From: Amoebophrya sp. A120
Lineage: Eukaryota; Protista; Dinoflagellata
Direction of reading: 5' to 3'
NCBI GenBank assembly: GCA_905178155.1
Contig: CAJINV010000012.1
Location: 2,072,166-2,136,165, forward strand
DNA: 64,000 bases
The notes beneath the pieces were generated by a model. That model did not search any database, had not been told where the DNA came from, and was given only the letters and a program-made list of their open reading frames with translations. The translations under genes were made by a program, and so were the position numbers. This document shows, piece by piece, positions 6,330 through 60,890 of this stretch; position 1 is the first letter of the stretch; every line of letters begins with the position of its first letter.

Positions 6330-6710
6330 GGAAACGCTTTAATTGGCGGGCGATTCGAACTTTTCCAAAACTTTTCCTTTGACTTTTCAGGATTTCAGGG
6401 CATTGAAAACGATTTGATAATGCGACTCAGAACGAAAAAACGCAGCGAAGATACTCCAAGCGACAGAACAGGGGCGCCTGCGAGGTCTTGGGCGCCGACG
6501 CCTCCTCTTGTCCCGCGGGTGATCGGCGAAGCCCGAGCGACCGCCTTTCAACCCGCCGAAGCGTGCGCGCGCCGGGCACCCGCCGACCGCACCCAGCCAA
6601 CGGCTGCCGGCGCGGGCGCCCTAAAGAAAAAGGCCATGACCGCCCATCGCACCCACCCGCCCCCCCCCAGGCACGGAAGGCCTACCCGGGAACGGACTAG
6701 GAGGAGGGCT
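6330..6710. repeat. GC-rich segment, probable interspersed repeat fragment
   Basis: Abrupt compositional shift, C-runs, no credible protein. Confidence 0.35.
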
Positions 6711-6718
6711 TGCATAGC

Positions 6719-6879
6719 TATATGCTATTGCATTGCAAAAGCATCGCACTCGTACTAATTGCAAGTATGCATGACAAATCTCCTTCTTGACCTCAATCCG
6801 CATTACAAATTTCATTTTTCATGCTGAGGGAATTTGTCATGCGATTTCTACTAGTGCGAGGATGCTTTTGCATTTCATA
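6719..6879. mobile_element. Introner-like element, family B (left end uncertain)
   Basis: TGCAAAAGCATCGCACTCGTA...GATGCTTTTGCATTTCATA; DR ATAGC/CTAGC. Confidence 0.7.
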
Positions 6880-7644: not shown

Positions 7645-10600
7645 TCATCGGCTCCTGGAGGATTTCCCAACCAGATCGACGAAGCCAGGCTGGCCCCACG
7701 CATTTTTTTCCACGTTCGCCCTCCAATGATTCTGTGACACAGAAGAAGAGGAGGATTCGTCCTCTTTCATCTCCCTTCTCATCTTCATCTGCAAATGCCC
7801 AGCCCCGAGCGGAAAAAAGCGTCCAAGCTCGAAAAACAGGCGTCCACAGATTTCCGACCGCGGCGCCGAAATCATATTCTTAAACCCGTTCGGAAACACT
7901 GTCAAATGAAAATATCATCTCTGGGTGGTCCTCTGGAAGAAAAATGCAATGTCTACTGTCATGCACATTTTACATGACCCATGAACATGAAGTGTGTAAT
8001 CATTTATGATGCATGCCAAAGCAACATGACATCGGAGTTCTAAGGGCTGTGTCCACAGCAACATGACAGATTTTCTGAGTGCTTCTCGATGCCTATCCTG
8101 CATGAGAAATAATTCCGTCTCCGCCCGCGCGTAGCAAGCGCGGCTGGACTCCCCTTGCTGCTCAAGAAGCAATATTACATCAGATAGTTATAGTTTCAGA
8201 ATCAAAAAGCACCAGCATAGTCTACCAATCAGTATACATAAAAATTTGCGCCCTACAACAAACTTTCAGACCCAGACATCTTTTTATTTGCGCTGCATAA
8301 ACACGCTGTTGCCGCAATGTTCTTGTGTGAAGCTTCTGCCGATTTTCACGAGTTCTGACTTCGGAGGAAGAGTCTCACGGCTTCCGTAGTTCTGAGGGCG
8401 GTTATTTTGTTCGAGTCCAGCACGGGCGGGACCACGAACATCATCTCGAACTCGATCTTCATCGACCCGCTCAACCTCTGTTGCCAACCTCCCAACATAC
8501 GCGTAAAATGGTTCCATCTCAGTCTCCTCTGCGTGCGCGCTGGCCATGGTGACGGTCAAGATGCGATTTTTCGGGATCCTGTAAAACTTGTTCGCCACCG
8601 TCCGCAGACGCATCGTGACCACGGGAAGATTTTCGTTTTTGATCGGTACCAATAAGTCGCCTCTTGTTGTACTATTTATTTCACTGCCTTGCTTAGTGCC
8701 ATTTGATGTCCTCCTCACACCCGCCAGCATCGCTTTCAGCACCGGGAGCAAGTCGGACGGCCTGAATATTTGGTTCCGAGAAACGTCACCAGTGATGTCC
8801 GTCATCTTCATAAAGCCAAAAAGGGCAAGAAAATCTAGCTCATTGTATAGGTAATCGCGAAGCCCGACCCTTTTGCTCACGAGCGGCATTCTTGTTCTTC
8901 GGTCATACAGTTTCTTGCAGGGCAAGAATCCGCTGCAGATTCTTTCCACCAAAGAACTCCCGTCCACGAAATATTTCGTGATTTCAGCCTGCGTTAGCGT
9001 GTCGATGATGTTGCTCGTGGTTTCATCCACACTTCTGTCAAAAACAGGCGAAGTTGAAGATGGTGCCCTCGTGGCTCTACTTGTTGTTCCTGAAATTCTT
9101 CTACTTGCTCTCTCCGCCGCTAAATTCTCGAGTTCGTTTTCCAAAAACGAAACCGCTTTTTCCAATCGGAAAACGGTCGAGTCCCCACATTTCCAGAGGA
9201 TCAAGCGGGACGCGTTGTTCTGCAAAGCTGGAAAAATTGCGGAATTGTCCAAATACGCGCCGTCCATGTAGGAAGCCCATACCGGGGCAGTTTTAGTATT
9301 CACTTTTGCGGTTTGATGTGATGCTGAACCTGGATGATCACCTCCACCTCGCCCAGTGTCAACATTCTTGACCGGCATTCCGATGAGCTGCAACGGTGAG
9401 GAAACGTGTCCGAGAAGATTCGCCGGGGCATTCGTACTAGCCGCGATCGCGTTATGGGAGCGTCAGGATCGAAGTCGATATTAAAGTTGAAAAAAATGTG
9501 ATGCAGAAAATCAATACCAGTTGTGGAAGCCCAGTTTCCAAGTAGCGCACAACAAATTTTGGCACTATATAAATCCAGTCTGTCATGCTGACTTTTTAGG
9601 GAAAGAAGGCGTCTTTTGTCATGCTACTTTAGCAGCTCTATCGCAGACCCCAAACAGGGCGACAGTCGGCCTCGTCACTTGCCATCCCTGCAAGCGAGGC
9701 ACTTCATGCCTTGCAATTTATGCGTGAGAAATTCTTTCAACTTTGTCGATTTCGGTCCTGACGCTTCCATACGCATGCGCGACCGATGGCACGCCAGAGC
9801 GTCTCGTGTTTTTTGCTTCAAACTGTCTGCTTCGGATGAACAAAACGCTCTTCACACGGTCCGCAAAAGTGGAGCGGTAGGTCGAGAAGGTAGAGGAAGT
9901 GTAGGGCTGTTTATCTAGAAGTTGTACTTTGTGCAGGACAGGGCGAGAGCCTGCTGATGTTCTGGGAAACGAATTGTCAAATTCCTCGTCCTCTGGCACG
10001 GACACCGCGAGCCCGTCTCGGTAAAAGGACAACGGCAAACATATTGTAAGGAAAAATATCCCCTCCCCATATTGAAAAGGAAATTTTTTGTGATGCTGAT
10101 TTGTGAGCAGCTTTAATGTCTTGCGTACAAGGCAAACGGCACCCATGACGTGGCGCCTTGTGCAGCGAGTCTGTCAAGCGTTTTCTCCTACCATGTGAGA
10201 CTTGTTTCTCGTGCTCAGCTGCTAGCCAGATGCGTAGTACCAAAATGGGCTTAGAACAATATGCCGACAAGCTCTTTCTGCAGTACAAAACGACCCATTT
10301 GTGTAGTACGCAAGAAATCCAGCAACGCAAATTCATCTTTTGAATACGGGGGGTGTCACTGTCAGGGCTTTTTTCACTTTGATAAAATACCCGTACTTGT
10401 GCAGCGCAGAGTTCTTGGCTGTTAATCTCGGCAGAGATACCAGTTTACTGCTCCATGACCATCTACGGATCCCGGTGACGAGGATCGGTTGCGGAGCGGT
10501 CGCGCCGAGGAGTCTTACTGGTGCGCTGTCCATCAGTGGTGGTGGCTCGAGGTCATAATTTCTTGGCTGCAGCAAATGTTGATTCCAATTGCTTTCCAGC

Positions 10601-13600
10601 GATGCCAATGCTTGTCCTTGCAGAATCCCAGCGGCAAAACTGCTATCAAATGTAAAAGTGTCTGGGTCTGGAAGAATGCAACTTGTCATGCTAGTAAATC
10701 TGAAGCATGCAAAAATCTGTGTTGCGTGATTACCAAAAGTCGTCCAGTTTTGACCAAGTCGGGAGGCAGTTTCTCAAGCGGGATAGGCAGGAGAAAGATC
10801 GCACAGAATCTGTCATGCTAGGTCCTGCATTCCAGACCTCATCGGTCATGGAAAAGCTGCATGACAAGTCGCGCATTCTTCCAGACCCAGACATTTTTAC
10901 ATTTCATAACTGCCCAGTAAACTCGATTTTGACAGGTCGTAGACGGGCGGGCGAGTGAAATTGAAATTGAGATTGATCTGCTCGTCAGCATCATTGATGT
11001 TGTAGAAGTTCTGGTCAGCTCTAGAAGTACTCCCACCTCCAGCGGCCTTAACAGCTGCCGGCGTGGTCGTATTTTTTGCCTCCGCGACGTCTGGTCGAGG
11101 TCGAGCCCCACCTCTTGTTCCAAAGAACAATCTTCGCACCAAGCCTACTCGCGAGGTGGACTTGCGTTCTTTGAGAAGCAATTGGCGCAATTCCGTCACG
11201 GTTAAGCCTCCGGAAAACCGGATCAGCCGCGCGTTGTGCGCGGCACGATTGTTATTGTGTAGTTCTTCTTGTTGAGTGTCAATAGAAGTAGTTGCACCAG
11301 CAACATCTTCGAAGTGGCTGCGTCGTGCTGCGACGTTGTTCCTGCTGTAGCTGTCCTGCCAAGTGGGGTCTTCTTCTTTCACAAGGGCAACATTGCGCAA
11401 AAACTCACGCTCAGCCATGAGAGTGGGCTCCTGGTGCGGCAGTGGATCATAATTATATGGATTTTCACGTAGTAGACCGCCGGCGTGGTCTACATCTTCA
11501 CCGTGCAGTTGTAGTTTGTCTGCAGGAGGAGGAAAATTCCCCTGATCTTCCAACCGAATCTTATGCAATGCAAATATGTCATCCTCTGGGCGGTCTGAAA
11601 TCCTATGCAAGATTTGCCATGCTTGTCTGGCACGACCCTGAGGTCTGTGATGCACACACACACACACGAACAGCCCCTGCTCTTGCCTGTTATGTTGCAA
11701 AAACGCCATTTATTCTTATTGCCAGGCGGAATACGAAACACGTAGCAGGAGCTGAAAAATGTTGCCATGCGTGACTGCCCACTCCAGGAGCTGCGCGCCC
11801 TTCAATCGCAGACTTGCATTATACAGTTTTCCAGATCCAGACATATTTGTATTTGATAACTCTCGGCCCCGTACAAAAGCTTCGCCACGGTCCAGGACCC
11901 ACCCGAAGAACCAGTCAGGTACTATCCTATGTAAGAACGTCCCCACGAGGACCCCACAGTTGTCAAGTTGGAAACTCAGCAACGCAATAAATCCAGAAGT
12001 AGTTTTGGGCGTTACGCATGACAGATTTTGCGCTGTACTATTGTGTTGCAGGTTAGCTGCAAGGACAGCCGCATCACAAAGAAATCCATCTTCCACCTAT
12101 CGTGCTGTTTATGTACTACAGCACTACAATTGCGGCCAATAAAGAACGACTGTGAACGCCTCGCAAGAACATTGGGATGCGTATTACAAGTGTTCCTGGT
12201 CGTCCTCCGATTGGCGATTGCAAATTATCTGCATGACGAACAACTCTGGGAGGGCTATGGACCACGTCTTTGTTGAGGATAGGTACTCGGGCCACTTCCC
12301 TTCGATAGTGGAGTTGACAGCAGCACGACGAGGACCAGCACCACCGGTATTGTTTACATCATTGTCGTCGTCTTCAACTTCTCCACCACTGCCACTAGCC
12401 AGCGTGGTGAACAAAGCCTGAGCAAACCCGATCCCGGTTAAGTGCATCCGATACCCGCCGCCAGCAATACAGACGGCCGTAATTGGGTGCGGTTCGCCCT
12501 GATACAGGAGTTTGAAAGAAGTGTTTATTGTCCTTGTTGTTTTGGCGCGAGCAGTAGTAGTCCCACTGTCATCAACATCAACACCCGAAGATGTTGAAGT
12601 CGTCACCAACTGCACCTCTTCATCTGCGGCAAACGGCTCGGTTGTGCCGGTAAGGGTCAGATACTGGTGTGCAGCAAAACTACCTGCCACAGGAGGTGGA
12701 GGCTCGGCAACTCCACGTGGTCCCCCAGATTTTATGTCATCAACAAGCGGGGGTGGACTCGCTCGGTACACGTATTCGTACCGGAAAGTAACCACGGAGG
12801 AGGAAGTCCACAGAAAAGACGAATCTACTTCTCGTACTCGTTCCGCGGCCGATAATGTTGAAGATCGCGCCCCCACATCATGATCCAGCTGATCTAGTTG
12901 ACTTATAACTTGGCAACCTGTCAGCTTCACGTCTTGCTCCATGAGTACTTCTACCTTTGATTTCGTCATATTATGGTCCTCGTCGTGCACATCGTGCAGC
13001 ACAACTGTCTGCACTGGCACATTCTGGATACGTGCGTGGTAGAAGAGCGGAGGTTCTTCGTCATCTTCTTCTTCTTGTTCAAAATGATCTACCTCGCCTT
13101 CATCAACAAGAAACGTGGCGCGGCGTTCGCCATCACTTCGACTTCTGTCGTTGTTCAATTCTCTCCTTTATGCATTGCAAAAGTATCGTGCTCGTAGTAA
13201 GTGTTGCAATACAAGTTAGCTCAGCATGACAAATGGAATTTCTCATGCTGATTTAGCTTGAAGAAGAAATTTGTCTTGCATGACTGCGATTAGTACCAGT
13301 ACGATACTTGTTTTGCACAGGATATCCTTCTTTATAGGCTCTCGGAAATTCATGTGAGAGTCCATTTCTGAAAATTTAAAATTCGCAAACTTCGAAACCC
13401 TCTGCGAATCTTATAACACGCGCCCAAAACCCGGCCCCGGCGAACCCCATTCAGCTTCCAAAGTCAACAAGGCCCCGAAAAGGGGGCTTCGAGAACTCTG
13501 AAAGATACGCGCCGTTTTTCTTCCAGAACTCTGGAGCTTCTCTTTTGTGGACTTCGAACAAGCCGGCCCTCGATCCGGAGCCGCTTGATCCCCGAACGCC

Positions 13601-16600
13601 GAGGTTGGCTCCATTGCCTAGTCCATGAGGTGCCCACCACGGCTTTGAGGTTCCGAAGCCAACAAATTCGACACACATGAATTTCTCAGGCTCTGAAAGA
13701 AAAACGGCGTCTTTCTTTCAGAGCCTGAGAAATTCATGTGTGTAAATGTTGAGCCAATCCCCTTCCATCAAAAGGGCGGCTGGTCGCCGGCCGTCTGGGC
13801 TGGCTTGATTGCCAGCTCCGGATCACGGCGGCCAAAGGTTCAATCTTTTCAAGTAATCAAATCTGACACACATGAATTTCTCAGGCTCTAAAAGAAAAAC
13901 GGCGTTTTTCTTCTAGAGCATGAGAAATTCATGTGTGTAAATGTTGAGCCAATCCCCTTCCATCAAAAGGGCGGCTGGTCGCCGGCCGTCTGGGCTGGCT
14001 TGATTGCCAGCTCCGGATCACGGCGGCCAAAGGTTCAACTTTTTCAACAAATCGAATTTGACACACATGAATTTCTCAGGCTTTAAAAGAAAAACGGCGT
14101 TTTTCTTCTACAGCCTGAGAAATTCATGTGTGTAAATGTTGAACCAATCCGCTTTCGCCAACAAGGCGGTTGGTCGCCGACCGTCGGGGCTGGCTTGATT
14201 GCCAGCTCCGGATCACGGCGGCCAAAGGTTGAACTTTTTGAAGAAATCGAATTTGACACACATGAATTTCTCAGGCTCTAAAAGAAAAACGCCGCTTTTC
14301 TTTTAGAGCCTGAGAAATTCAAGTGTGTAAATGCCTTTCGCCGGCCCCCGGCTGGTGAAAATCCCCATTGGTAACTGAAACATTTTTCAGCTACCAATGG
14401 GGATTTTCACCACTCGGTGAGTGGCGAAAGCGCTTTCGCCACTCACCGAGTGGCGAAAATCCCCATTGGTAACTGAAAAGCTTTTCAGTTACCAATGAGG
14501 ATTTTCACCTCTAGGTGAGAGGCGACAGCGCTTTCGCCTCTCACCTAGAGGTGAAAATGCCCATTGTAAACTGAAAATCTATTCGCCACTGACGAAGGCG
14601 ACTCCTCCTGGTGGAAATTAATTCAAGTGTGAAAATTTGTTGGGGCTGTTATTGGTCTCGAAAAACGAGTCGCTTTCAGCACTCTTTTTTTTGCTACCCC
14701 CGATGGGTAACAATTCAAGTGTGAAAATTTAAAAGAGTCACTGGAACGACTCACTGCAATGACTCTTTCAATAGAGTCTCAACTATTTCTCTTCATAATT
14801 AAATTTACGCACTTGAATTTACTGTCTTTTAAATTTACGCACTTGAATTTGTTGCCAATGGCAATAAATTCAAGTGCGTAAATTTAAAAGACTCCTTCGA
14901 AGGAGTCCTTGCAAGGAGTCCCTGCCTGGACTCATTGCAAGGTGTAGCCGGAAGAGTCGAACGCAAATCCAAAACGAAAACGATTCATCCCCAACAATTT
15001 GCACTAGCGCCAGCAGATGTCCCAACTACCTCCTCCCCCAACCCCCGCTACCTCCCCTGGGGCCCGAGCCTTCTCCTTCCCAACCCGGACCACCTCCTCT
15101 ACAAGTTCAGCCGCCTACTCCCGGAGCCAGGTCTTCTCCTGTGGGCCCCGGCCCCCTTCACGCGGAACCCAGACCACTTCTTCCACAGCCCAAGCGCCCT
15201 CATCCGGAGCCTGGACCCCCTCCTTCCAAACCTCCGCCACATTCTTCGGAACCCAGGCGCCCCTCGTCCCAACCCGGAAACGGCCCCGGCCCTCCCGCTG
15301 CTTTCTTCTAAATGGCCAGACCCGAGGCGCTTCAGCTTTGAAGGCAAAGCCCATCGCCCCCTTCTGAGCTGAGGCCGCTCAACCCTTGCAGACCTACCTG
15401 CCCCAGAGGCCGAAGCGGGAGGAGCCTGCCTATGCTGGCATCCACGTGGGGCCGTGTCATTTGTCTCGCCTCGAGCCACCTCGCAGTCGGGGGCGGGTTT
15501 TACAAAAATGGCCGGAGTTGAGGCGCTTCACTTCACGAAGGGCAACCAGCTTGCCGAACCACGGCGAAGGCGCTCAGCTTTGTTGGCTTTGCTTGTCCAC
15601 GGCCCGAAACCTCTTGCGCCCTGGCCTATGCGAAGCCGGGCGCGGACCTAATGCCCTTCCTTTTCCGAGCTGGCCCTAGCGTGGCGCCACATCGACGACG
15701 ACTTAAAACACCCCACAAGAGAATGCCTGGAGGGCGCCGGAAGGAGGGCTCGGGCAGCCACCTTCCGGCAAAGCCTTGCAGCTACACACCGCGAGGGGAC
15801 CACAGAGCGCACCCCCTGAAAACCGGAGCCGGGCCCCTCACTATTCAGAACATGCCCTAAAGTGGTTCGCAACGCACTCCACTCAGCTGGTTTCTTAGCC
15901 ACAATCTTCATAGTGCCAGTGCCGATCGTGAATGCTTGCCGTCTGTAGAGGTGTCGCTCTGCCACTCAGAGGGGCGAACTACAGACGCTCCCGGCGGCCA
16001 GAACCCCTATGCCCTGCCCCCAAATCGCGGCCCCCGATGGCCGACAAAACCGCCGAAAACCGAAAACACGCAGAGCCACCAAACTGAGCCGAAACACCTA
16101 AGACCGAGAAACACAAGCCGGCGACCAGTGCAACTGCTCCAGTTTTTTCTTCGGGCAAAGGCCCCAACGTGGGCGGCAGGCCTGTGCCCGGGCGACGACC
16201 ACAACAGAGCAGGATGCCAGGAGTGAGGTCATAACCCAGAGGGCCGAAGCGCTTAACGTGCGAAATAAAAAGCGCGGCGCCGGCGCTGCCGTCGCTACTT
16301 CTTGCAGAACTGTAGCGGTTCGACTCTGGCAGCAGCTCCGTGGCTGGGCAACTTGCACAAGCAAAGGAGGCGCGCAATGTTTTGCCATTGGCGCTATTCG
16401 AAAACTGCGAAATTTAAATTTTCGAACATGGTACTAGACATGAATTTCTCTGAGCCCATATTCTTGTTCCAGCACCCGAGGCCGGGTTGTAAAAGTTCAC
16501 ACGTTATCAAGTGCAAATATGTCTGGGTCTGGAATAAACTTGTGATGCATGTGAGTGAACAGAAAGCGCGCTGTAATGCACCGCCAAGCATGACAGATTT

Positions 16601-18766: not shown

Positions 18767-21700
18767 TCACTCTCGTCCACCCCTGGAGGTCCTCTGCACC
18801 AGATCCACGAAGCCAGGCTGGCCCCACGCATTTTTTGCCACGTTCGCCCTCCAGTGATTCTGCCACACAGAAGAAGACGAGGACTTGTCGTCGTCTTTCA
18901 TCCCGTCCCTTTTCATTTTCATCTGCAAATGCCCGTCCCCGAGCGGAAAAAAGCGTCCAAGCTCGAAGTACAGGCGTCCACAGATTTCCGACCGCGGCTC
19001 CGAAACCATCGACCAAAACCCATTGGGAAAAACCCTGCTGCCGCAATGTTTTTGTGTGAAGGCCTTGCCGATTTTGGCGAGGTCTGATATTAATCCTCGC
19101 CGAGAAGTTGTAGCCCTCGAAGTGCCAGCATCAACTTCACGCACCAACCTCCCAACATACGCGTAAAATGCCTCCATCTCCGCCTCCTCTGCGTGCGCGC
19201 TGGCAAAGGTGACGGTCAAGATGCGGTTTTTCGGGATTTTGTAAAACTTGTTTGCCACCGTCCGCAGACGCATTGTGACGACGGGGAGTTTTTCGTTTTT
19301 GATCGGTACAGAAGAACCGCCTGTACCAAAATCATTTTCACTATCACTGCCTTGATGTTTGATATTCCTTTTCACACCCGCCAGCATGGCTTTCAGCACC
19401 GGCAGCAAGTCGGACGGCTTGAAAATTTGGCTCCGCCTCAGGTCAAAGGTGGTACTGTCCGTCTTCATGAAGCCAAAGAGGGAAAGGAAATCGAGCTCAT
19501 TGAAGAGGTAATCGCGAAGCACCAACGACTTTCTCCCGTCCACGAAATGCTTCGTGATTTCACCTTGCGTCAGCGTGTCGATGATGTTGCGAGCGCTTGA
19601 AGTTGATATTTCTTCATCACTATCGAAATAAACAGGCGGAGTTGATGTCCTCCTGTCTCTACTTCCAGAAGTAGTTCTTCTCCTTCTTTCCGCCGCTAAA
19701 CTCTCGAGTTCGTTTTCCAAAAACGAAACCGCTTTTTCCAATTGGAAAACCGTTGACTCCCCGCATTTCCAAAGGATCAGGCGGGATGCGTTGTTTTGCA
19801 AAGCAGGAAAAATTGCGGAATTGTCCAAGTACGCCCCGTCCATGTAGGAAGCCCATACCGGTGCAGTCCCTACTTTTGCGGCTTGTGATGCTGAAACTGC
19901 ATGATCACGACGTCGTCCACCAGTCGTGTCCTCATTCTTGAGCGGCATTCGGACGAGCTGCAACGGTGAGAAAAAGTGTCCGCCAACATTCCCCGGGCCA
20001 TTCGTACTAGCCGCGACCGCGTGGGCAACCGAGGGCACGCCGGGACGTCGCGTTTTTGTCTCTTGAAAATGCCTGCTCTATCAACTGTAAAAATGTCTGG
20101 GTCTGGAAGAATCCAACTTGTCACGCTGATTTTGGATTCTAAAAAAATCTGCATTGCATGAGCAGCAAAGAGAGTCCAAGTTTTGCTACACGGGAAGAGC
20201 CTTTGTCATGCGGTATAGGCATCAGGAAGCCCTCACAAAATCTGTGACGCTAGGGCATGCATCACAGACATCAGGAGTCATGCAAAATGTGCATGACAAG
20301 CCTGGCAATCTTCCAGACCCAGACATTTTTACATTTGATATGCTCCGGAAAAGCAAAACGCTTTTCACACGGTCGGAGAAGTTGGAGCGGTAGGTGGCGA
20401 AGTTCGAGGAAGTGTAGGGCTGCTTATCTACAAGAACTTCGTGTCGGAGTCGGACAGGACGACACGAGCCTGCTCCTCCGGAGGGACACGAATTAAAATT
20501 ATCGAACGCCTTGTCTTCTGGCACGGACACCGCGAAACCGTCTCGGTAGAAGGAAAGCAGCAAATATCTGTACTTGTGCAGCACGGAGTTCTTTGCCGTC
20601 GCTCGTTGCCATCCTATGCAACAAGAAAGAAACTGTGTAAATGAAAATGTCTGTGATGCAAGAAATGCATAACTGTATACGCTTGTCATGCTGGGTGTGC
20701 ATCATAGGCAACTTTCATACGTGTTTCCACGTGCTAGCTGCGCATGACAGGTTCTCCCTGTACTGCAAAGCGAATTTGTGATGCTGTTCTTCCTACAAAG
20801 TTACACTTACACAGTTTTTTTCCTGGATACATCCCTTGCTCCATTTACCGATCGAGGTGACGATGATCGGCTGCGTATCCTGTGTAAAAACATCCCCACC
20901 CCGACCCCAGAGTCAAGATGGGGATTTTGCAACACAAACCTGAAAGTTTTGGGAGCCACGCATGACAAGTTGCAGGCTGTAGTGTAATGCCGTTTCGCAA
21001 GGGAAGGCGCATAACAAATCCTTCTCCTTATCCTGTTGACAGCATTACAACTTCCAAAACACGATGGGAAATGCCTCTCATGGGGATGCGCATTATAAAT
21101 GCTCTTGTGCTTGCAGATCTGCATGACAACTCTGGTGTGGGTACGTTTTTACTCAGGATACTGCGGAGCGGTGGCGCCGAGGAGTTTGACGGGTGCGGTG
21201 TCTATCAGTGGCTCAAGGTCGTTTTCATCGTAATTAGTATCATTATTCCTTGTCTGCAGCAAATGTCGATTCCAATTCCTTTCCACCTTTGCCAGTGCTT
21301 GGCCCTGCAGAATCCCAGCGGCGAAGGTGCCCATTAAATTCGACTTCGATAGGTCGTAGACAGGAGGCAGAGTGGAATCGATTTCGGCCGCGGCGGGGCC
21401 CGTATTCTCAAGAGCATCAGGGATGATGATGTTGTTCTCGTCATCTGTAGTACTCTCGTCCACTCCAGCGGCCTCAACAACTCGCGAGGTAGTTTTATTT
21501 GCCCCGCCCGGGTCGTCTGAAGATCGACGCCCTCTTCCCAATGAAAATCTTCGCACCACGCCTAGTAATCGTGAAGACTTGCGTGTTTTGGAAAGCAATT
21601 GGCGCAATTCCGTCACGGTTAAGCCTCCGAAAAACCTGATCAGCATCGCGTTGCGCGCCGCACGGTTGTGATTGTGTAGTTCGTGAGTGTCAATGGAAGT

Positions 21701-41486: not shown

Positions 41487-42299
41487 TTTAATTATTTATG
41501 AAGCTGAAACTGATTTATGAGAATTCTTGGGGACAACGACAAGTACAAGTAGTTGGATGTTGTCGTGCTACATAATAAAGTTCGAGTATAGATGAAAATG
41601 GGCTCTAATGACAATGAGTAGTAGATCTACTACGCAAGAAGAAAAGTCTTCTTGCTAAAGAAAAGCCGGGAGATATGTTGAGAGTCGCTGAGTAAATAGC
41701 TGCGTTTTAGTTTTACTTGTTCTTTGCACCATGATCTATTTGAAAGTCAAAGTAGCACCAGCAGGTGCGATCATATCCTTGCCGAGTCACCAGTATTAAA
41801 AAAGTAACTCTCGTATACTTTCAGTGAGCTCATCTTCAATATCGCCCACCTTTAGTAGAAGCATTGAACTTGTTACGAGATACTTCTTTGGCTGATCACG
41901 TAAAATAATATCATCTGGACTACTTAGGACTAGATAGATTTAAGGCCGTGAAGCTCGAATACAGATCGTGAGACTTGAACTTGTTGTTCTGAAGATCATC
42001 TACTACGTTTTTCTGAACTCCTGAGCAGCCAGGCGAACCGACGACGGTATGCACCTCCAGGCAGCACAACTGCACTACCCCTGAAGGAGAAGCTTGCTCG
42101 ATGTTGATCTAGGTCCTTGCGCTGCTTGCTCCTGGAAGTGTAACTTGTATCGACCACCTCGCTTCACGACAACAAGTAGAACAACAACGAACCATTGGCA
42201 ATATGGTCCGAGGATGCTGAGAGACAGACGACGCCCGCCGTCCGAAGCTGCAGAGCGAAACAATTTCTGTTCGCCGTTTCTCGTCGGTCGACAGTAGCT

Positions 42300-43690
42300 A
42301 GCACCATAAGAGTGGGCCACGGGGGACAAGGGTGGGTGAATGACAAGGAAAGCGACATACTATTGCAGGAGCAGCCACACACAGGGGCTGCATTAAGGCC
42401 CACACCGCATGGCCATGAGTATGCTTGCTTGATCCATTCACAGAGCTTCGCAGCCGTACCCGGGCGGGCGGCGCGGACATACAACGCCGGCCAAGCGGCC
42501 CCTGAAATGACGGGCGCCATGGATCATGCAGTTGTTGCTTGGCTTGCCAGGCTTGGCACTGCCCGGGCCCGGCGCGGCGGGGGCCCAACCGCAAGCATGC
42601 AAAACAAAGGAGGGGGCCGCCACATGCAAAGGCACTAGAGCAGGGCCACCCCTGGGGCCCCCCGCGCTGTCGATCAACCGCCACAACGGGCGACCGAGGG
42701 CGCAAGGGGCGGGGCGGGAGGTGACAGGCCCGGCGGCCGGGCGGGTAGACAGACAGAGAGACAGACGGCGAGCGGCGCCGGCCCCCGCCGTGTCGCTCGT
42801 CGTGTTGTGAGTGTATGGCTCACCGCGGTCGCCCGGCCCACCGAAAGGGCTCGCCCCCTTCAAATCGCGACGCCAGGAGCCCAGCCCGCGGAGGTTTTTG
42901 ATCTCGCGGCCGCGCGCGCCCCGCCCAAGCGGCGCAGTTGGTACGTCGCGAGCACCACCCCCCCCCCCCCCCCGGCCGGGCCGCAAGCGCCAGGGCGAAC
43001 GGGCCGGGCGCCCCCCTGCCGTGCAACGCCGCCCGCGCCCCCGCGTCCGGCCCGCGAATTTGGCGGCATATTTACGGGGCCCCCACCAGCGCCAAGGGAA
43101 GGGGGAACCGGCCCCGACCGCCCTCCGAGGCTGGCAATGTCGCGCGATGGCCCCAAGCTATACCCTGGGCGGCGGCTTTTCCAGATCGCGCGCGCCACCC
43201 TCTCCCGTCCCCGCCCGCGCCCAGCAGGGGCCTCCGCCCCCTGGGCGCGCTGTCTGCGCAATACTTCTCGCACATGCTGCGGAGCAAATATCTGGCATCA
43301 ACCTTCCGTCACCCTGTAAGTGGCAGAAGAAACACGCCAAACTTCCAGCCGGACAACTGCGCCGAGGAAATGTCTCACGCGCCAACGAGTCAACTTCTAT
43401 GCGAAGAGTCGGAAGTCCCGGCATCGCAAACAATTGCCCAGCCCGGGGGCTGCCGAACCTGCCGGAAAACGAAAAACGGCGCCGCAGGCGTGCGCTCCCC
43501 TCACAAAGACCACAGAGGCCCCGCAGGGCGGGCGCGACGCTCCTGAAGGCTTCCGGCGAAGGGCCGCGCGCGCGGCGCTTGCTGACTCCAAGGAACGAAG
43601 GGCGAGCTTCATTCTGCCGACCCTTATACACCAAAAGGGCGGATTCGGATACAGAAGGATACAATAAACAACCGGGGCGAACAACCTTCC
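42300..43690. repeat. Very GC-rich island, probable interspersed repeat or mobile element remnant
   Basis: Sharp GC rise, poly-C run near 42958-42973, ORFs in all six frames without a recognisable domain; boundaries approximate. Confidence 0.4.
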
Positions 43691-44207
43691 TCGTCTCCCT
43701 CTTGTGGGCGCAGAAATTTCAAGAAGCGTCTTCATTTGATGCACTTCGTTTTGATATGTCTTCTACCTTCCACGACGGCACGTCGCCAGTGCTGCCTTTT
43801 CCAGGGCACCAAAATCCATTCTGCGAAAAAGTCGCCAAGCATTTACAAGCCAAAATTTGCATTTGCTTGGTAGTTCCATCCAATTTATTTCAGCAGGCCT
43901 GAGTAATATCCGCAGTCGGAGTCTATGAACAAAAAAACGCAGGAAAACAGAACGTCATAAAGTCATCCTGTTCAGCACAGAAGACAATCTAATGAAAAAC
44001 AGAAATCGTATTCGTACAAGAAATCATACTAGTAGCAAAGAGCTCATCCAGGGCATAAATGAAATAAGCGTATGTAACTAGTAAGAGCTGTGACCGGAAT
44101 CGCCTGCCATCAATAAATAACATCGAGGCCACAAATACTCAACTCGATCCGCCACTGCGCCCGGGTAATTGAGTCGTGTCAGTCTACACTACAACTGTGC
44201 TCCACCA

Positions 44208-53653: not shown

Positions 53654-53887
53654 TATGGATCTGTCAGGATTGAAATCGTCAAAGTTGAAATTATAGTTTG
53701 CCATGCATAAAATGCAACGCAGAGAATGCCTGTCTTGCAGAGTAGGCAAGGGAAGCAGATGGCAAGCCTGTTTCGGGGTAGAAATAGAGCTGCTAAAGTA
53801 GCAAAACCAAAGGCGTCTTCCTTCCACAAACAGCATTACTGACTGGATTTCGGCTCTCCTCAAATTTGTCATGCGCCGATAGCCATA
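53654..53887. mobile_element. Truncated family H element downstream of a stop codon
   Basis: Left TIR TATGGATCTGTCAGGATTGAAATCG intact; right TIR and matching DR missing. Confidence 0.65.
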
Positions 53888-53910
53888 TCCCCACCTCACC
53901 TCCTGCTCCA

Positions 53911-56900
53911 TCACACCGCATACGTTTGCGTTTCTTCTTCCTGCGTCGACTCAAGCAGAAGTACTTGGTCCACTTCCAAGACCTCGCAGGATTCGATATG
54001 CATTGCAAAAGTATTGCACTCGTACAAATTATCGCATGACAAGTTTGATGTTCCTCAGAAAATGAAATTCAAATTTCTAAAATGCAGATTTACCTAGAGA
54101 AAGACATCTGCAAGAATGCATGACTGCGATTAGTAGAGTACGAGTACGTCGCTACTTGTACAATCACAATGCGTATTCCATATGCTGTGCAAAACCATCG
54201 CACTACTACACTAGTATAAAAATAAATTGCATGACAAATTACATCCTCAGCATGAGAAATAACATTTGTAATGCGGATCTACATTGAGAATGACAATGAG
54301 ATTTGTAATGCATGAATGCGATTACTACGAGTACGCTATTTGTGCAATGCATATTCCAGCTGGTCCAACAACACCGGAATCTGGTTGTTCGGAATTCGCA
54401 TCACTTCCCCGTGCTGCGTGTCGTGCTTATCGACGTTCTTCCCCTGCTGCTGCAGCTGCTCGGTAGTAACATTTTTAGTAGAATCCGTTCGCAGGTGTTC
54501 CAAAAGTTCATACCGCTCTTGCCAGAAAGTCAGCTGATACGCGTTGTTTGCTTCACATTTCGGATCTTCTTCATCGCTCGTTTTGACAACGCCATCAGTC
54601 GACGTGGACAATGATTTCTTCTTCCGGATGCAGAGCTTCAGGTATTTTCGATCCCGCCGCAAGGCTTCGGGCACGACTTTCGCCACTGGATCCACTACGC
54701 AGCCGTAATTTATTTCCATGTTGGCAGCAGCTGCCCCGCGGGGTTCTACTCCCAGCATCCCACAGCTTTCCACGTCTTCCCCGTAAAGCGCTGCGTAGGG
54801 GTAAGAGCCGTACCGCCTTTCTGGGCCAACCGGTTCCCCCGTGCGCAAGTTTTTCCGCTCCGGCACGAGCCGGCAGGTGTGGGACAGCTGCGTCGGTTTG
54901 GATGTTCTAGTTTTTTCTTCATGCTGCTCGTCTTTTTCGTTCCCTCCTTTCCCTGCTTCGTTCCCTTCCTCCACCACCTCCGTTCGCACCACTTCCCACG
55001 CGAGAATCCCGTTCGGGAAAAGCCGCTCGTCCGCGGTGGCAAACCGCGCCCCCTGTTTGTCAAAGTCCACAGTATTGCGGATTTTCGAACGCTGCTCCTT
55101 CTGCGACTCCTGGAGGGGCGGCACGGCCATCGGAATTTCTTCATCCGAGGCTTTCATATAATTTCCTCCGCCGGAAGACGTTTTCATCCTCCTCTGTGCT
55201 CGTGCCGTTCTTGTACTAGATCCGTCGAAGACAGCGCGGACTTCCCTCATGATGTCCACGCTGACAACCTCCCTCATGAGAGTAACAAAGCCCTCGTCTT
55301 GGCCTTCCACGTCGTCCTCGTCCTCGTCGGACGTGGAATTTTTGTCCTCATCATCACTCAACTGCACCGTCGACGATGACGCAGCTTTGTCAACAGAAGA
55401 AGACTCGGAGGTGTCGCCAGCCGAAGATTCGGCAACGGCATCCTCTTCGTCATCTACTTCCACATCTTGTTCGGCGGGTGAAGAAGCGGAGTTCGAATCT
55501 TCATCTGCAAGAACTCCGTCGCGATCGTCCGCGTTTGCCGACGACGCACTAGCACCCGTCTGATGATCAGAGAACTTTTTAGTACTCAACATTTTCATCT
55601 GTCCTCCTGGTTTTTCCACCTTGGCCTTGCTTGGTAACATCTTTGTGAAATCTTTACAGAGTTGACGCGACGTTTCCACAGCTTTCAGTCGCGGGAGCAC
55701 AATATCTCTTCGTCCATCTTGCCATCTACCGAGAATCATTTCCGCATCCATCCGCATGTAAATCCCGCACAAAATTTTCCTGTTCAGCTCCTTGTTTTGT
55801 ATCCGTGTGTTCAGCTGCCGCCACTGTCTCGCCCTGCGTTCACTGTTCGGCGCATTGCCACCTGTTCCTTCTCCTGGATTATTATACCGCCTATTTTTGA
55901 ATTGTCCTATTCGCCGCCTCTTCATTCTCTTCAAATCTTTTGTCATCTTATCCAGTTTTAGTGCGAGGCTGTGCTTCACGAAGTCGATTTTGCATTGACT
56001 CAAAACATCTTCGGTGGACGTCTCTGAGGTTTCTGTTGCAGTGGATGTTCTTGTGGTTGCTGGGCAGCCCGTAGTACTATTTCTTTCCGCCTCGGGAACG
56101 CGTAATTCCTTCTCCAAAGCCTCGAGAGCTGCGGGCAGTGTGTTTTTGGTCATGACCATGGCGAGTTTCCGCTTTATGGGGCGAACAACATAATGCTCCA
56201 CCCGGGTCACCGCTTCCGTTCCCTGCATCACCGCACTCGTGGTCTTCACTTCCTGGCGGTGTTTTTTCATACCTTCTTCGCTCATCTCGTATGGTTGGCG
56301 ACCGCGGCCGGAACGGCGGGCGTTGATGATGATGGCTTGTTTTACGATCTCTTCGCCGGTGTTCTCGCTCGTCTCGGCAGCCGCGCCCGTCGACGTATCC
56401 AATTTATTGTTCATCTCACCGCTCTCCTCTCGATCTGCTCCTGGTCCTGCCAAGACTGCCAGTGACGCGAAAGAGGACGCGGCAGAGGCCGACGTCGTCC
56501 CCTCCAGCCCAGGAATCACTTTTTTCTGGATGTGCGGGATGGCCATGAATTGCGTGTTGATATGCAAAGAAAAAAGCGTTACAGTTTACACATTGTGTTG
56601 CAGGACCGGCAAGACAGACAACCTTTGTCATGCACGAAATGCTTTCGAGCCTGCTCGTTTCATACGTGTTTTCCCTTGTGATCTTTGCATTGCAAGTTTT
56701 GTTCTATGTGATGCAGAGAAAATTTGCGTTGCTGAAGTTCCACCATCGATCACCAAGTGTGTAACTGTAACTACACTTTTTTCGTTGGATAGTTTACCCG
56801 GTTTTCGCAGTAGTCCAGCAGGTCCAGCCCTTTGGCGTAATTGGTGAAGGCCGCACAGAACCTTGGCAGCGGATCCGTCGCGAAGATGGTCAGATACTTG

Positions 56901-59341
56901 CAGCAAATGATCCGCTCCGCCTGCGGCCCAAAGTCCGCGGTCGACCCGTGCTGCAGCATCAGGGACTTCTCCGAGGACGCAAAGTACTCTCCTTTGCCGT
57001 CGCCGTTCTTGTCGAAGCAGCGGTCGGAGTAGCACCCGATATTCGGAAGGTCCGCGTCAATTAGATCCTGCCACTTCTCTATCCAAGAAAAAAACTGTGT
57101 AAGTGTAACTTTGTGTTGCAGACGGCGCAAGACAGTCACAACTGTCATGCTGGACATGCATCAGAGGCACTTTTCGTACGTGTTTTCACGTACTAGCTAC
57201 GCATGACAGGTAGTAGTTTTCTCTGTGGTCATGCAGAGCAAGCTTGTGATGCTGTTCCTCCAAGAAAGTTCCACTTACACAGTTTTTTTGTTGCATATTC
57301 TCGCAACCTTGGTTGTCGCAGTTGTCATACTCATTCGGGTTCGACATGCTCACCGCGTACTGGTATCCACTTGACAAAAGTATCGCGCTCCTCCAGTACT
57401 AATTGCAGATGTGCATGACAGAACAAAAATGTGTTCTCAGCGTTTTTTTGCATCACAACTCCTTTTTTTCATATGAAAGGATCATTTGGAAGAATGCGAT
57501 TTGCACGGCTGGAAGTACGATACTACTTTTGCAAGAATGCATAAGTTGTACTCATCGGCTAAAGCGAACCACACATGCGAGAGTTCGTGCACGAAGACCT
57601 CCGCGTCCTGGGTCTTGGCCAGTTCGGGGTAGTAGGGGTTGCGGGTCATGTACCCGATGGAGTTCAGACTGCTCGCCATCCCCGCGTGCCAGTAATCGGG
57701 GTCCCGCCGGTCCTCGCGTAGGTTCTGGATCAGCATGATCGCTTTAATCGTCGGCAATTTCGAGGCGCAGTGGTCGGTGACCAGAACCTGAATTGCGTTC
57801 TCCGTTGCGTTCCCGTACTGCGGGTGTTGGTGGATGCGGCACATAAACTGGTCGTGCTGCAGGTCGCTCCACTGCCCCTGCAGCGTGTTCCAGGGCTTCT
57901 CCTTGGGCGCAAACGAACAAAAGTGGTCGTCGTCCCACGGGTGGGCGGCGGACACGAAGAAATAGTTGATTTGCTCCACATCCCGGGGGTTAAACGGGCG
58001 GTGCTGGATCGTGTAGAAGTAAATGTCGCGCACGGTCTGCTCCCATCTTGCTGTTTCGTCGTACACCGGGTCATTTTGTTTAAAGTCCGGGTGCCCCCGC
58101 AGCCGAAACCCGGAAGGCGCGAGAATCACGTTCAAAGCGTCCTGGGGGTGTCGCCAGAGGTGCAGCGCGTTGCAGGTTTCCAAGTCCCCACCCACCTCCT
58201 CCATCCAGTCCTTCGCCTCCGGACTGATCGACAGTGTTTCAGACACCTCGCCATTGTCCACCGGCGCATACAGGTTTGCCCCTTGTCCCAGCGTGTTATC
58301 GATGACAATGTCGCCCGGCGCATACGACTCCTCCCCGGAGATGCCGAGACTATCCAGTCGGTCCTCGTCGTCCCGCGGCGCTTCTGACCCGGAGCCGGCG
58401 CCCCCACCGACTCTGCTCGATTCTTTCGAGTTGTTGGCCTCGCCGTCGGAGGTGCCACCAAGCAGGTCACCGCAACAAGAACCATCGCTGCCTTCATTTT
58501 GTTGTAGTTCCAGAACGGAAGTAGAGAAAGATGTAGATCTGCTCCCGGAAGTTGTAGACGATGTTGCTTGTTCCGACTGGGTATCAACCACGCGGCTCGA
58601 CGTCGCTTCAAGAGTTTTTCTTGTACCACCTTCAGAGGACTCGTCATCGTCTTCCTCCTGGGCCGCCTCGCCAAGTACAACATTTGACGACGGGGACAAG
58701 GGTCCACCACCACCTCGAACTGCTAGCCGTACCTCCTGAGGGTCTTCTTCTTGGTGTAGTTCCTTGCCTAGGTCAACATGATCCGCATCGGTTTTTCCTT
58801 TTAATACCGGTGCTGCTGCTGGGTGAAGCTTGATGCCACGAGCAGAAGTAGTTGCGAAAGAAGACGCTCTTTCGGTTGACGAAGCAGGTGCTGAAGAACC
58901 GTCTCCACTACTTCTACCCGAAGTTGTAGAGCTGCTGCTTGATGTTCTCGCAGCTGCGACAATATTTTTCCTTCGAGGTAGGTCGCGTCCTTTCTTGGGG
59001 CCGATTTTCCTGTCTTGGAGAAAGCGGAAGGCTTCCACGGGCTGCGGGAAAAATACTAGATGAGCACCAGGTGCTTTTTCATCGGTATGATGCTCAAGAA
59101 CAAATTGTCCGGAATAAAGTAGGAATACCAAGGGCAAACACGCACCGGCCACAGAGGAAGGAGGAGCTCGTCCTGCAGTAGTTGTGAAAGTAAGGGGCAC
59201 GACCACACTTCTTCTTTTATCCGACTTGTCGGCGGTCATCGTGCCAGAAGTAGAGCCGGACAGAGGCCGTGTGGTCGTCGACACAGGTCTTGTCTTCATC
59301 GTCAACGAAGACAGGGAAGCAGGAGCTGCTGCTCCGGCCAT
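53911..59341 (-). CDS. Large protein with an M64 (IgA peptidase)-like zinc metallopeptidase domain and an uncharacterised C-terminal domain; 5 introners
   Basis: FVHELSHVWFALADEY (HExxH...DEY), upstream NVILAPSGF and PFN..QINYFFV, downstream KWQDL..GCY..SLM; last exon frame LESCEVLEVDQV supported by the paralogue at 60891. Confidence 0.7.
53997..54175. mobile_element. Introner-like element, family B (degenerate), tandem with the next
   Basis: DR TTCGA/TTCCA. Confidence 0.8.
54181..54353. mobile_element. Introner-like element, family B
   Basis: DR TTCCA/TTCCA. Confidence 0.85.
56561..56791. mobile_element. Introner-like element, family C
   Basis: DR GTTGA/GTTTA. Confidence 0.85.
57080..57297. 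mobile_element. Introner-like element, family C
   Basis: DR TTCTC/TTCTC. Confidence 0.9.
57364..57543. mobile_element. Introner-like element, family B (degenerate)
   Basis: DR ACTGG/AGTTG; immediately after the DEY motif. Confidence 0.75.
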
Positions 59342-60890
59342 TTCGATTTATTTCCTTTTTTAGGTATCGATACGAAGGATGCCGAAAAAAAAGTGTTTAC
59401 AGCTGGTTCTCGCGCTATTCAACTTAGGTGAAAGTAAAAATGAAAGAGTGCTGCAGGCTCGCTTCTACGAAAAAAACCAAAATTTAACTTGCTATTGCTC
59501 CTGCTCGCACCATACTTAATCTTCAACTTCATCTTTCTTTTCGTGAGCGACATTTTAGCATTACCTTTTGGGACAACTACGAGGCGGGGAGAATCATGAA
59601 AATCTGTTGTAGCACGACGAAATAGAGAAGAGCAACGTTGTCAGACGAGGCGGGCACGCATAACTCACATGTGAAAGTTGTAGAAAGTTGGACGAAATAG
59701 ACCACGAGAGGACGAAAGAAAGGTCTGCTGAAGATAGTACTCACTAGACGAACTAGCATTCCAGTGTTAGTTCACGGTCGTAGTCGGTCGTGCTACGAGG
59801 ACGATCGGCATTACTACAGAAGAAGAACGAGGAACGGGAACGAAATCACTTTTTGTACGCTGCACGATGCGAACTTCATTTAGCATTCCATCCTGCTTTG
59901 TACGGACGAGGACAATCGCAGGAGGACGAAAGAGATGAACCGACGGAAAACGAATATGTGACCTCCTACTTATTTTCAACGGAGGTTGACGATGTCTCTT
60001 CATGCTCGCAATTTGCAAGCAAGAACAGAATAGCGATTTCATATCACGGTAGCAGGAGCAGCACGAGCAGGGACGTCAATTAGAATTACGAACTACGGCA
60101 GGTCAGGCAACATCTTCTTGACGGCAACCAGAAGTCTTAAGAAGAAGGAACGACACGACCACAAGCGAACAACAAGGAAAGTTGTGACATAAGAAAAATA
60201 GGTGCTGCAGAAACTACTACAACTTGCACTTTACGACCGGCCGAAAAAAACATTTTTCAGCCTGTCTCGTCGTACTACATCAAGTGCCCAAATATGTACA
60301 AATTGAGTCTTCTTCCGTGGTAGAAAATTCGTGACGAACTACTTGCGTGGAAGTTGGTGGTGGTACTGGTGGGGATACCATCCAATAACTCATTCGAACT
60401 TACTTCACCGTTGGGAATAAATAGCAAATGATCAGGTTGGTGTCGGTGTAACTAAGTAAAAAAGAGAATTTTTTCAAATCTTTTGTACAGACGGTAAACG
60501 AACGAAGTTGCAAATTAGAACGTAAAACTTCTCAGTTCAGACAGTGCAATGAATGCGTATGCGATGCATGTAAAATAAATTATTGATCAAAAATCGGAAA
60601 CGCAAAGTTGAGTAGACTTGTGACGAAGATTTGCTCTGCGAGTGTTGTAATCAATCAGAGGTGCTTCAGATTCATACGAAGAATGAGAGTAAAAATAACG
60701 AAATAACTTCCTCTGCTGCACCTGCAGCTGTACTAACTTCTAAGGTATAAAGATAAACACCTATATGAAAATTATAAAAATCAAAATCAATGCACACTAC
60801 TAACCGAAACGTCTTCCCGTACGTTTTTTTTAACCTCCAGATGAACATCCTAGTGGTCCACACGACCAGAACCTCCACTGCAATAAGACC

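Follow-up and report, generated by a model that had tools for sequence, protein, structure and literature searches.

A Head-to-Tail Introner Dimer in an Amoebophrya Gene That Is Likely Removed as One Compound Intron

The window analyzed here is a 64,000-nt stretch of contig CAJINV010000012.1 from Amoebophrya sp. A120, and it contains two introners of one family that stand head to tail at a single target site and share the direct repeat between them. On balance, we favor the reading that this stack arose by an old in-place duplication of one element and is removed in one step as a single 362-nt noncanonical intron, through pairing of its outer inverted repeats. The evidence comes from the structure of the pair, from contig joints across it, from predicted pairing of its ends, and from rare substitutions common to the two elements.

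Structure of the Introner Pair and Its Host Gene

The stack has the order TTCGA-E1-TTCCA-E2-TTCCA. The left repeat copy (TTCGA, 53992–53996) is the 3′ copy in the transcript and has one mismatch, and the mismatched base is missing from the spliced contigs described below. E1 (53997–54175, 179 nt) has a left, outer terminal inverted repeat (TIR) close to the consensus and a decayed right, inner TIR, in which TAT has become TAC and insertions of 3 and 6 nt are present. The middle repeat (TTCCA, 54176–54180) is common to E1 and E2, forms the "zero-length exon", and leaves with the elements. E2 (54181–54353, 173 nt) lies in the same orientation as E1; its left, inner TIR contains substitutions and insertions, and its right, outer TIR is complementary to the left end of E1 across 11 bp. 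The right repeat (TTCCA, 54354–54358) is the 5′ copy in the transcript, of which no fewer than the first two bases are kept after splicing. Both units belong to the B family (~150 nt), as each has many blastn matches inside the window, both align over their full length with 18 single copies from the window, and the family HMM matches both. The original prediction of three repeat copies around two such elements is exact in its coordinates, and both units are indeed family B. The two are 76% identical overall (i.e., ~24% diverged), and their global alignment score is 108 on the same strand versus 36 for the reverse complement, so that an insertion in opposite orientation is ruled out. The outer ends of the stack carry the inverted repeat TAT + 7 nt + AAA with a perfect 11-bp stem (34 nt at 79%); the inner end of E1 alone is without this motif. 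An assembly artifact is an unlikely source of the stack because contigs of the DNA-like run X1 (53774–54232 and 54306–55000) match the window with 0 differences and cover all three repeats, X1 being a run that may be the window's own source and is not independent of it.

The host gene (53911–59341, minus strand) encodes 1474 amino acids once the stack and the introners at 56561–56791, 57080–57297, and 57364–57543 are removed; the frame is open over all 1474 codons, from 59341 to 53911, with one repeat kept per removed introner. The stack sits ~27 codons upstream of the stop. One repeat retained at the stack gives ...LLDQLESCEVLEVDQV... in the host protein, and a peptide near 60944, in the upstream paralogue, aligns with this one-repeat product. 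The frame is shifted if two or three stack repeats stay, and retention of either element leads to a stop within 4–6 codons. The open frame and the alignment thus bear out the earlier claim that one repeat copy is kept and that the paralogue supports the frame. A Pfam scan of four proteins, including two long pieces of the host gene, returned no family in any of the four. We note that a partial introner of a 308-nt family (53654–53880) overlaps the region of the host 3′ end, and that part of it (53774–53880) is retained in the contigs of runs X3 and X7.

Introner Families in the Window and in a Related Genome

Elements that end in TAT...ATA and carry 5-nt repeats abound in the window. We curated 60 of these, counting the stack as one, and 40 of the 60 have perfect repeats; the set is incomplete, as further ends were flagged afterward, and the boundary at 6727 is imprecise. 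In transcript orientation, repeat mismatches in the curated elements fall mainly at position 2 (10) and position 4 (7) and are fewest at position 3 (2). No target-site motif emerged around the 60 empty window sites, where no base exceeds 24/60 at any of 21 positions. For comparison, a pattern scan of a related genome that carries these families (best copy identity ~95%) gave 152 loci, which merged into 140 stretches, 496 kb in total. Family B is dispersed among unrelated genes, with a cluster of 205 members in the window and these loci. Positions 4–8 of the family-B TIRs usually differ between the two ends, and because of this 137 of 177 family-B copies are predicted to pair over 3 bp at the terminus and, beyond a loop, over a longer stretch.

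Other repeats sit inside introners. One (merged L015 ~487–665 and L035 ~6348–6525) is 99% identical between its two sites, which lie in two different introner families, and a second (merged L103 ~368–524 and L094 ~118–267), also with introner hosts, is 94% identical between sites; repeats of this kind may be another mobile element, one with introners as its targets. The window also has a tandem array of ~195-nt units with internal inverted repeats (13346–14330) and a very GC-rich island (42400–43900; 62% over 42001–44000) that is unlike the rest of the window and has no Rfam match. Rfam gave 0 matches in the window as a whole and 0 in six loci with inserts.

Evidence for Excision and Its Route

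Two of the four runs aligned, X3 and X7, which are two samples of one study, each contain one contig that joins 53990 to 54353, skipping 362 nt and keeping one repeat. The joint has 4 ambiguous bases and 217 nt on its shorter side, and depth in both runs is zero in the bins covering the middle of the stack (54041–54211). Five equivalent 362-nt excisions, from 53991–54352 to 53995–54356, yield this joint (span 53991–54356). The corresponding intron end pairs are GA..TC, AA..CG, AT..GA, TA..AA, and AT..AT, none of which is GT/GC..AG, and all five cut registers lie within the 5-nt direct repeats or one base beyond them. The kept repeat begins from the transcript's 5′ copy. An mRNA with two repeat copies had been put forward as evidence against the original model; the X3 and X7 contigs, which are probable RNA, keep one.

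The stack is probably spliced out of the mRNA. Runs X3 and X7 were typed "RNA?" by guess, and the raw-read run X9 gave 0 reads here and so provides no test; a DNA allele with an empty site would give an identical joint, in which case the stack would stay unspliced and the protein would be without its last 26 residues. We infer that the X3 contig is RNA because its length of 4616 nt fits full splicing and because it passes the point where the X1 contig breaks. This contig ends at 53774 and, if fully spliced, begins at 59395, 54 nt upstream of the ATG; without splicing, its other end would fall within the CDS, at 58751. It runs beyond 57107, the break point of the DNA-like X1 contig. In addition, X3 comprises 41 million letters versus 106 in X1 and contains 0.78 of the sampled words versus 0.97, and the exon pieces match the window with 0 differences. 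Against this evidence, we regard an empty-site allele as the most improbable of the explanations considered here.

Predicted pairing points to the outer ends as the ends of the intron. The outer-end duplex (−28.7 kcal/mol) is typical of the family, the median of 177 single copies being −28.1, whereas the own-end duplexes of E1 and E2 are −17.8 kcal/mol each, a value as weak as that of 13 of the 177 singles (the weakest 7%). The terminal stem is 11 bp for the outer pair, 5 bp for the own ends of E2, and 2 bp for those of E1; a 2-bp stem like that of E1 occurs in 4/177 singles. The predicted fold of the whole stack is −103.5, compared with −91.8 when the own ends of E2 are forced together, a cost of ~12 kcal/mol. 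On the transcript strand, 22.6 pairs are expected in the terminal 30 nt for the outer ends and 0.0 for either unit's own ends. The outer pairing has a z of −4.66 against 100 shuffles, and the inner end of E1 has the lowest score of 40 ends. These folding predictions suggest that the stack is likely removed in one step with its outer inverted repeats paired. The original prediction offered recursive excision or outer-TIR pairing as the two routes; the latter is the one that the 11-bp stem and the −28.7 kcal/mol duplex favor, and recursion is the less likely of the two.

Under recursion, the stack would likewise have arisen by copying of the resident element, but its removal would be stepwise, E2 with one repeat leaving first and the rebuilt single-element intron next. 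E2 is indeed transcribed before E1, keeps its TAT/ATA ends, and is predicted to fold by itself (−43.9), and a few single copies have end pairing as weak as that of E1 and E2 or a 2-bp stem like that of E1, so that E2 could leave first. Ends of unrelated family copies also pair as strongly as an element's own ends (median −27.2 vs −28.1), yet exons of 30–75 nt are common; as a rule, cells must therefore keep outer ends from pairing over a short exon, perhaps because the first introner to be made is the first to be removed. On the other side, both own-end pairs fall among the weakest 7% although the outer pair is typical, and the inner end of E1 scores lowest of all. No single-element joint occurs among the contig joints listed for the aligned runs, a weak point against recursion, as contigs lose rare forms and one-element intermediates would not show in them. 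A search of the transcript strand for AGGT, the AG/GT ratchet point, in the middle repeat and its flanks found none. We consider recursion unlikely, and one-step removal considerably more probable.

A broader rule can also be envisaged. We put forward, tentatively and with more doubt than conviction, that an intron in this lineage is defined by the best-pairing inverted repeats and not by splice-site sequence, so that a duplicated introner collapses to a compound intron with dying inner ends. The same rule would purge insertions less than ~30 nt from a neighbor, since a micro-exon between them would be lost when the outer ends pair, and if it is true, a zero-length stack is the one close arrangement without cost.

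Origin and Rarity of the Pair

E2 is probably an old duplication of the element together with one repeat, and not a new arrival, because two near-private substitutions are common to the right ends of E1 and E2. Both lie in otherwise near-invariant columns, and each occurs in just 1 of the 406 other ends compared, a set that comes mostly from the related genome and was partly selected for conserved ends. Two such rare states are shared by 2 of 22,155 other pairs and by 2/496 among rare-state-rich members; with looser rarity cutoffs, 4.7–8.1% of diverged pairs share two states. The tail of E1 was anchored by hand, post hoc, after the likeness had been noticed, and aligns ungapped across 15 nt. 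Overall identity (76%) alone does not mark E1 and E2 as sisters: against 211 other family members, with the E1 tail unaligned, E2 ranks 25th of 212 for E1 and E1 ranks 81st for E2. By a divergence-corrected pair score, the ranks are 4th and 7th of 212, and the score of E1/E2 is reached by 18% of 2,415 diverged pairs. A 20-row tree unites the two elements with support 84/60. The free 213-row quick tree separates them, and a 213-row tree that holds them together is +22 lnL over this free tree, with a p-AU of 0.607.

The sequence of events that we envisage starts from a single ancestral element, L-body-R flanked by two repeats, that would have been copied in place. The 5-nt repeats may have given rise to slippage or unequal exchange, or a transposase may have placed a copy of the element in its own repeat; the sequence cannot distinguish these routes. 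The outer L and R′ would restore the ancestral end pair, leaving junction and frame unchanged, and the inner ends, now unneeded, would have collected substitutions and indels.

The original prediction had favored reinsertion of a second, independent element into the existing direct repeat, and it had set a simple same-orientation tandem duplication against that idea. Such a duplication is probably what is present here, given the alignment scores of 108 versus 36 and the shared rare states, and reinsertion is accordingly disfavored. The rival account, an independent family-B insertion into the preserved repeat with right ends made alike later by gene conversion or chance, has a precedent: the text of 10.1101/158386 documents for P elements a double insertion that leaves a TSD between tandem elements. 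In 20,000 random-insertion simulations, an exact same-site pair appears somewhere in the window in 8.5%, and one stack alone therefore implies no special pathway; the repeats and the homology of E1 and E2 are not due to chance. The low overall identity fits this account too, as does the left end of E2, which resembles an existing family end variant and suggests conversion or a separate origin. At one related-genome locus (L093:301–600), a family-B element is followed 6 nt on by a family-A start, and one base separates their target sites; the locus stops inside the second element, and the arrangement is a possible cross-family near-stack that would mean that adjacent independent insertion can occur. 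Against the independent insertion stand the two near-private substitutions, the lack of a target-site motif over 60 window sites, when the text of 10.1101/158386 ties dimers to site preference, and the lack of nested copies and scarcity of close neighbors. We judge it rather unlikely.

Stacks are rare. None of 476 adjacent element pairs in the related-genome loci is an exact stack with a 5-nt gap; 7 pairs have gaps of 6–34 nt, 178 of 35–79 nt, and 56 of 80–124 nt. Short loci favor short gaps, a bias that does not account for the hole below 35 nt. Among 532 calls, none is a full element nested within another, though elements make up 21% of the loci DNA. The closest target sites in the window are 30 nt apart (44 spacings), when 4.9 spacings of 1–29 nt are expected (P 0.003). 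The lack of nesting in the 532 calls and the few gaps of 6–34 nt suggest that insertion of a new element right beside a resident one is disfavored. Introner spacing could reflect an insertion bias or selection on splicing, and a linker preference is reported in the text of PMC9860276 for other introners. The adjacent-pair counts rest on TIR and direct-repeat calls and family HMMs; a loose end-score junction scan was too noisy. Two further loci with short gaps, L018 (5 nt) and L043 (3 nt), were inspected and are not stacks. A strict consensus pattern for a head-to-tail junction, which would miss decayed junctions like that of E1/E2, had 0 matches in metagenome_contigs, and the element end pattern had 0 matches in viral_contigs.

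The stack had also been proposed as a plausible intermediate of an element replacement seen elsewhere in the window. The paralogues at 8287–13331 and 18770–24145 are 66% identical over 979 aligned residues and share one of five mappable introner sites, with the same codon, phase, and repeat, that is occupied by family A in one (11562–11858) and family B in the other (21937–22088). By our own arithmetic (5 × 6 sites over ~2,940 nt), the chance of one shared site is ~1%, and the sharing of this site by different families is genuine. The proposal that the stack is an intermediate of such a replacement draws on this site and finds no support in the stack. Both stacked units are of one family and probably sisters, and loss of either would not change the family; their ~24% divergence also points to a long-lived state. 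Replacement by gap repair is known from P elements, and either it or parallel gain would explain the 11562/21937 site without a stack. The text of PMC4457414 offers parallel gain at a single position as an alternative. We regard the stack as a replacement intermediate only as a quite improbable case.

Comparison with Known Systems

Recursive splicing at zero-length exons and the stwintrons of fungi use canonical spliceosomal signals (AG/GT ratchet points and nested U2 introns, respectively) and proceed in two steps. The stack likewise consists of two intron units that adjoin without an intervening exon and give one net junction. Unlike those systems, it is without GT/GC..AG in any register, and its units lie side by side. 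In composite transposons, two element copies act via their outer ends and the inner ends lose function; unlike these, the stack has no cargo, and what its outer ends are predicted to delimit is an intron in RNA.

Head-to-tail dimers of TIR elements with one TSD at the junction, and with junction ends that often decay, are described in the text of McGurk and Barbash (10.1101/158386), and the junction of the stack likewise has one TSD copy matching the flanks. Those dimers arise by double insertion at preferred motifs in Drosophila and are not introns, whereas here we find no motif, sister-like units, and probable removal from a transcript. Neither a dimer of introners sharing a direct repeat nor one that works as a single intron turned up in the literature searched, which included the wording of PMC7789003, PMC12130899, and 10.1101/2020.10.14.339549, with subscription papers, figures, and bioRxiv supplements outside its scope.

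The dimer, which combines two inner pairs of ends with an outer pair at a single locus, is a natural test of intron recognition, and the excised product or nascent RNA would tell whether TIR pairing or transcription order determines the cut. By itself, the locus is a rare curiosity and not evidence of a replacement pathway.

The closest relatives of the stack are the introners of A120-type Amoebophrya themselves. The text of Farhat et al. (2021, PMC7789003) describes repeated noncanonical introns whose ends are joined by inverted repeats of 8–20 nt that begin with TAT, seven variable bases, and at least three A; direct repeats of 3–5 nt overlap the borders, and a hairpin is proposed to bring the exons together. 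The same text reports no U1 snRNA and no border consensus. Its main text has no instance of "nested" or "recursive", and the text of its supplement has none of "tandem", "nested", or "adjacent". The stack is like these introners in its inverted-repeat motif, its short direct repeats, and its dispersed family; they are described there as single elements, whereas the stack has a repeat common to its two units, which are probably excised jointly. We see the stack as likely a modest variant of the published introner type, a real dimer that probably stems from an old self-duplication and acts as one compound intron.
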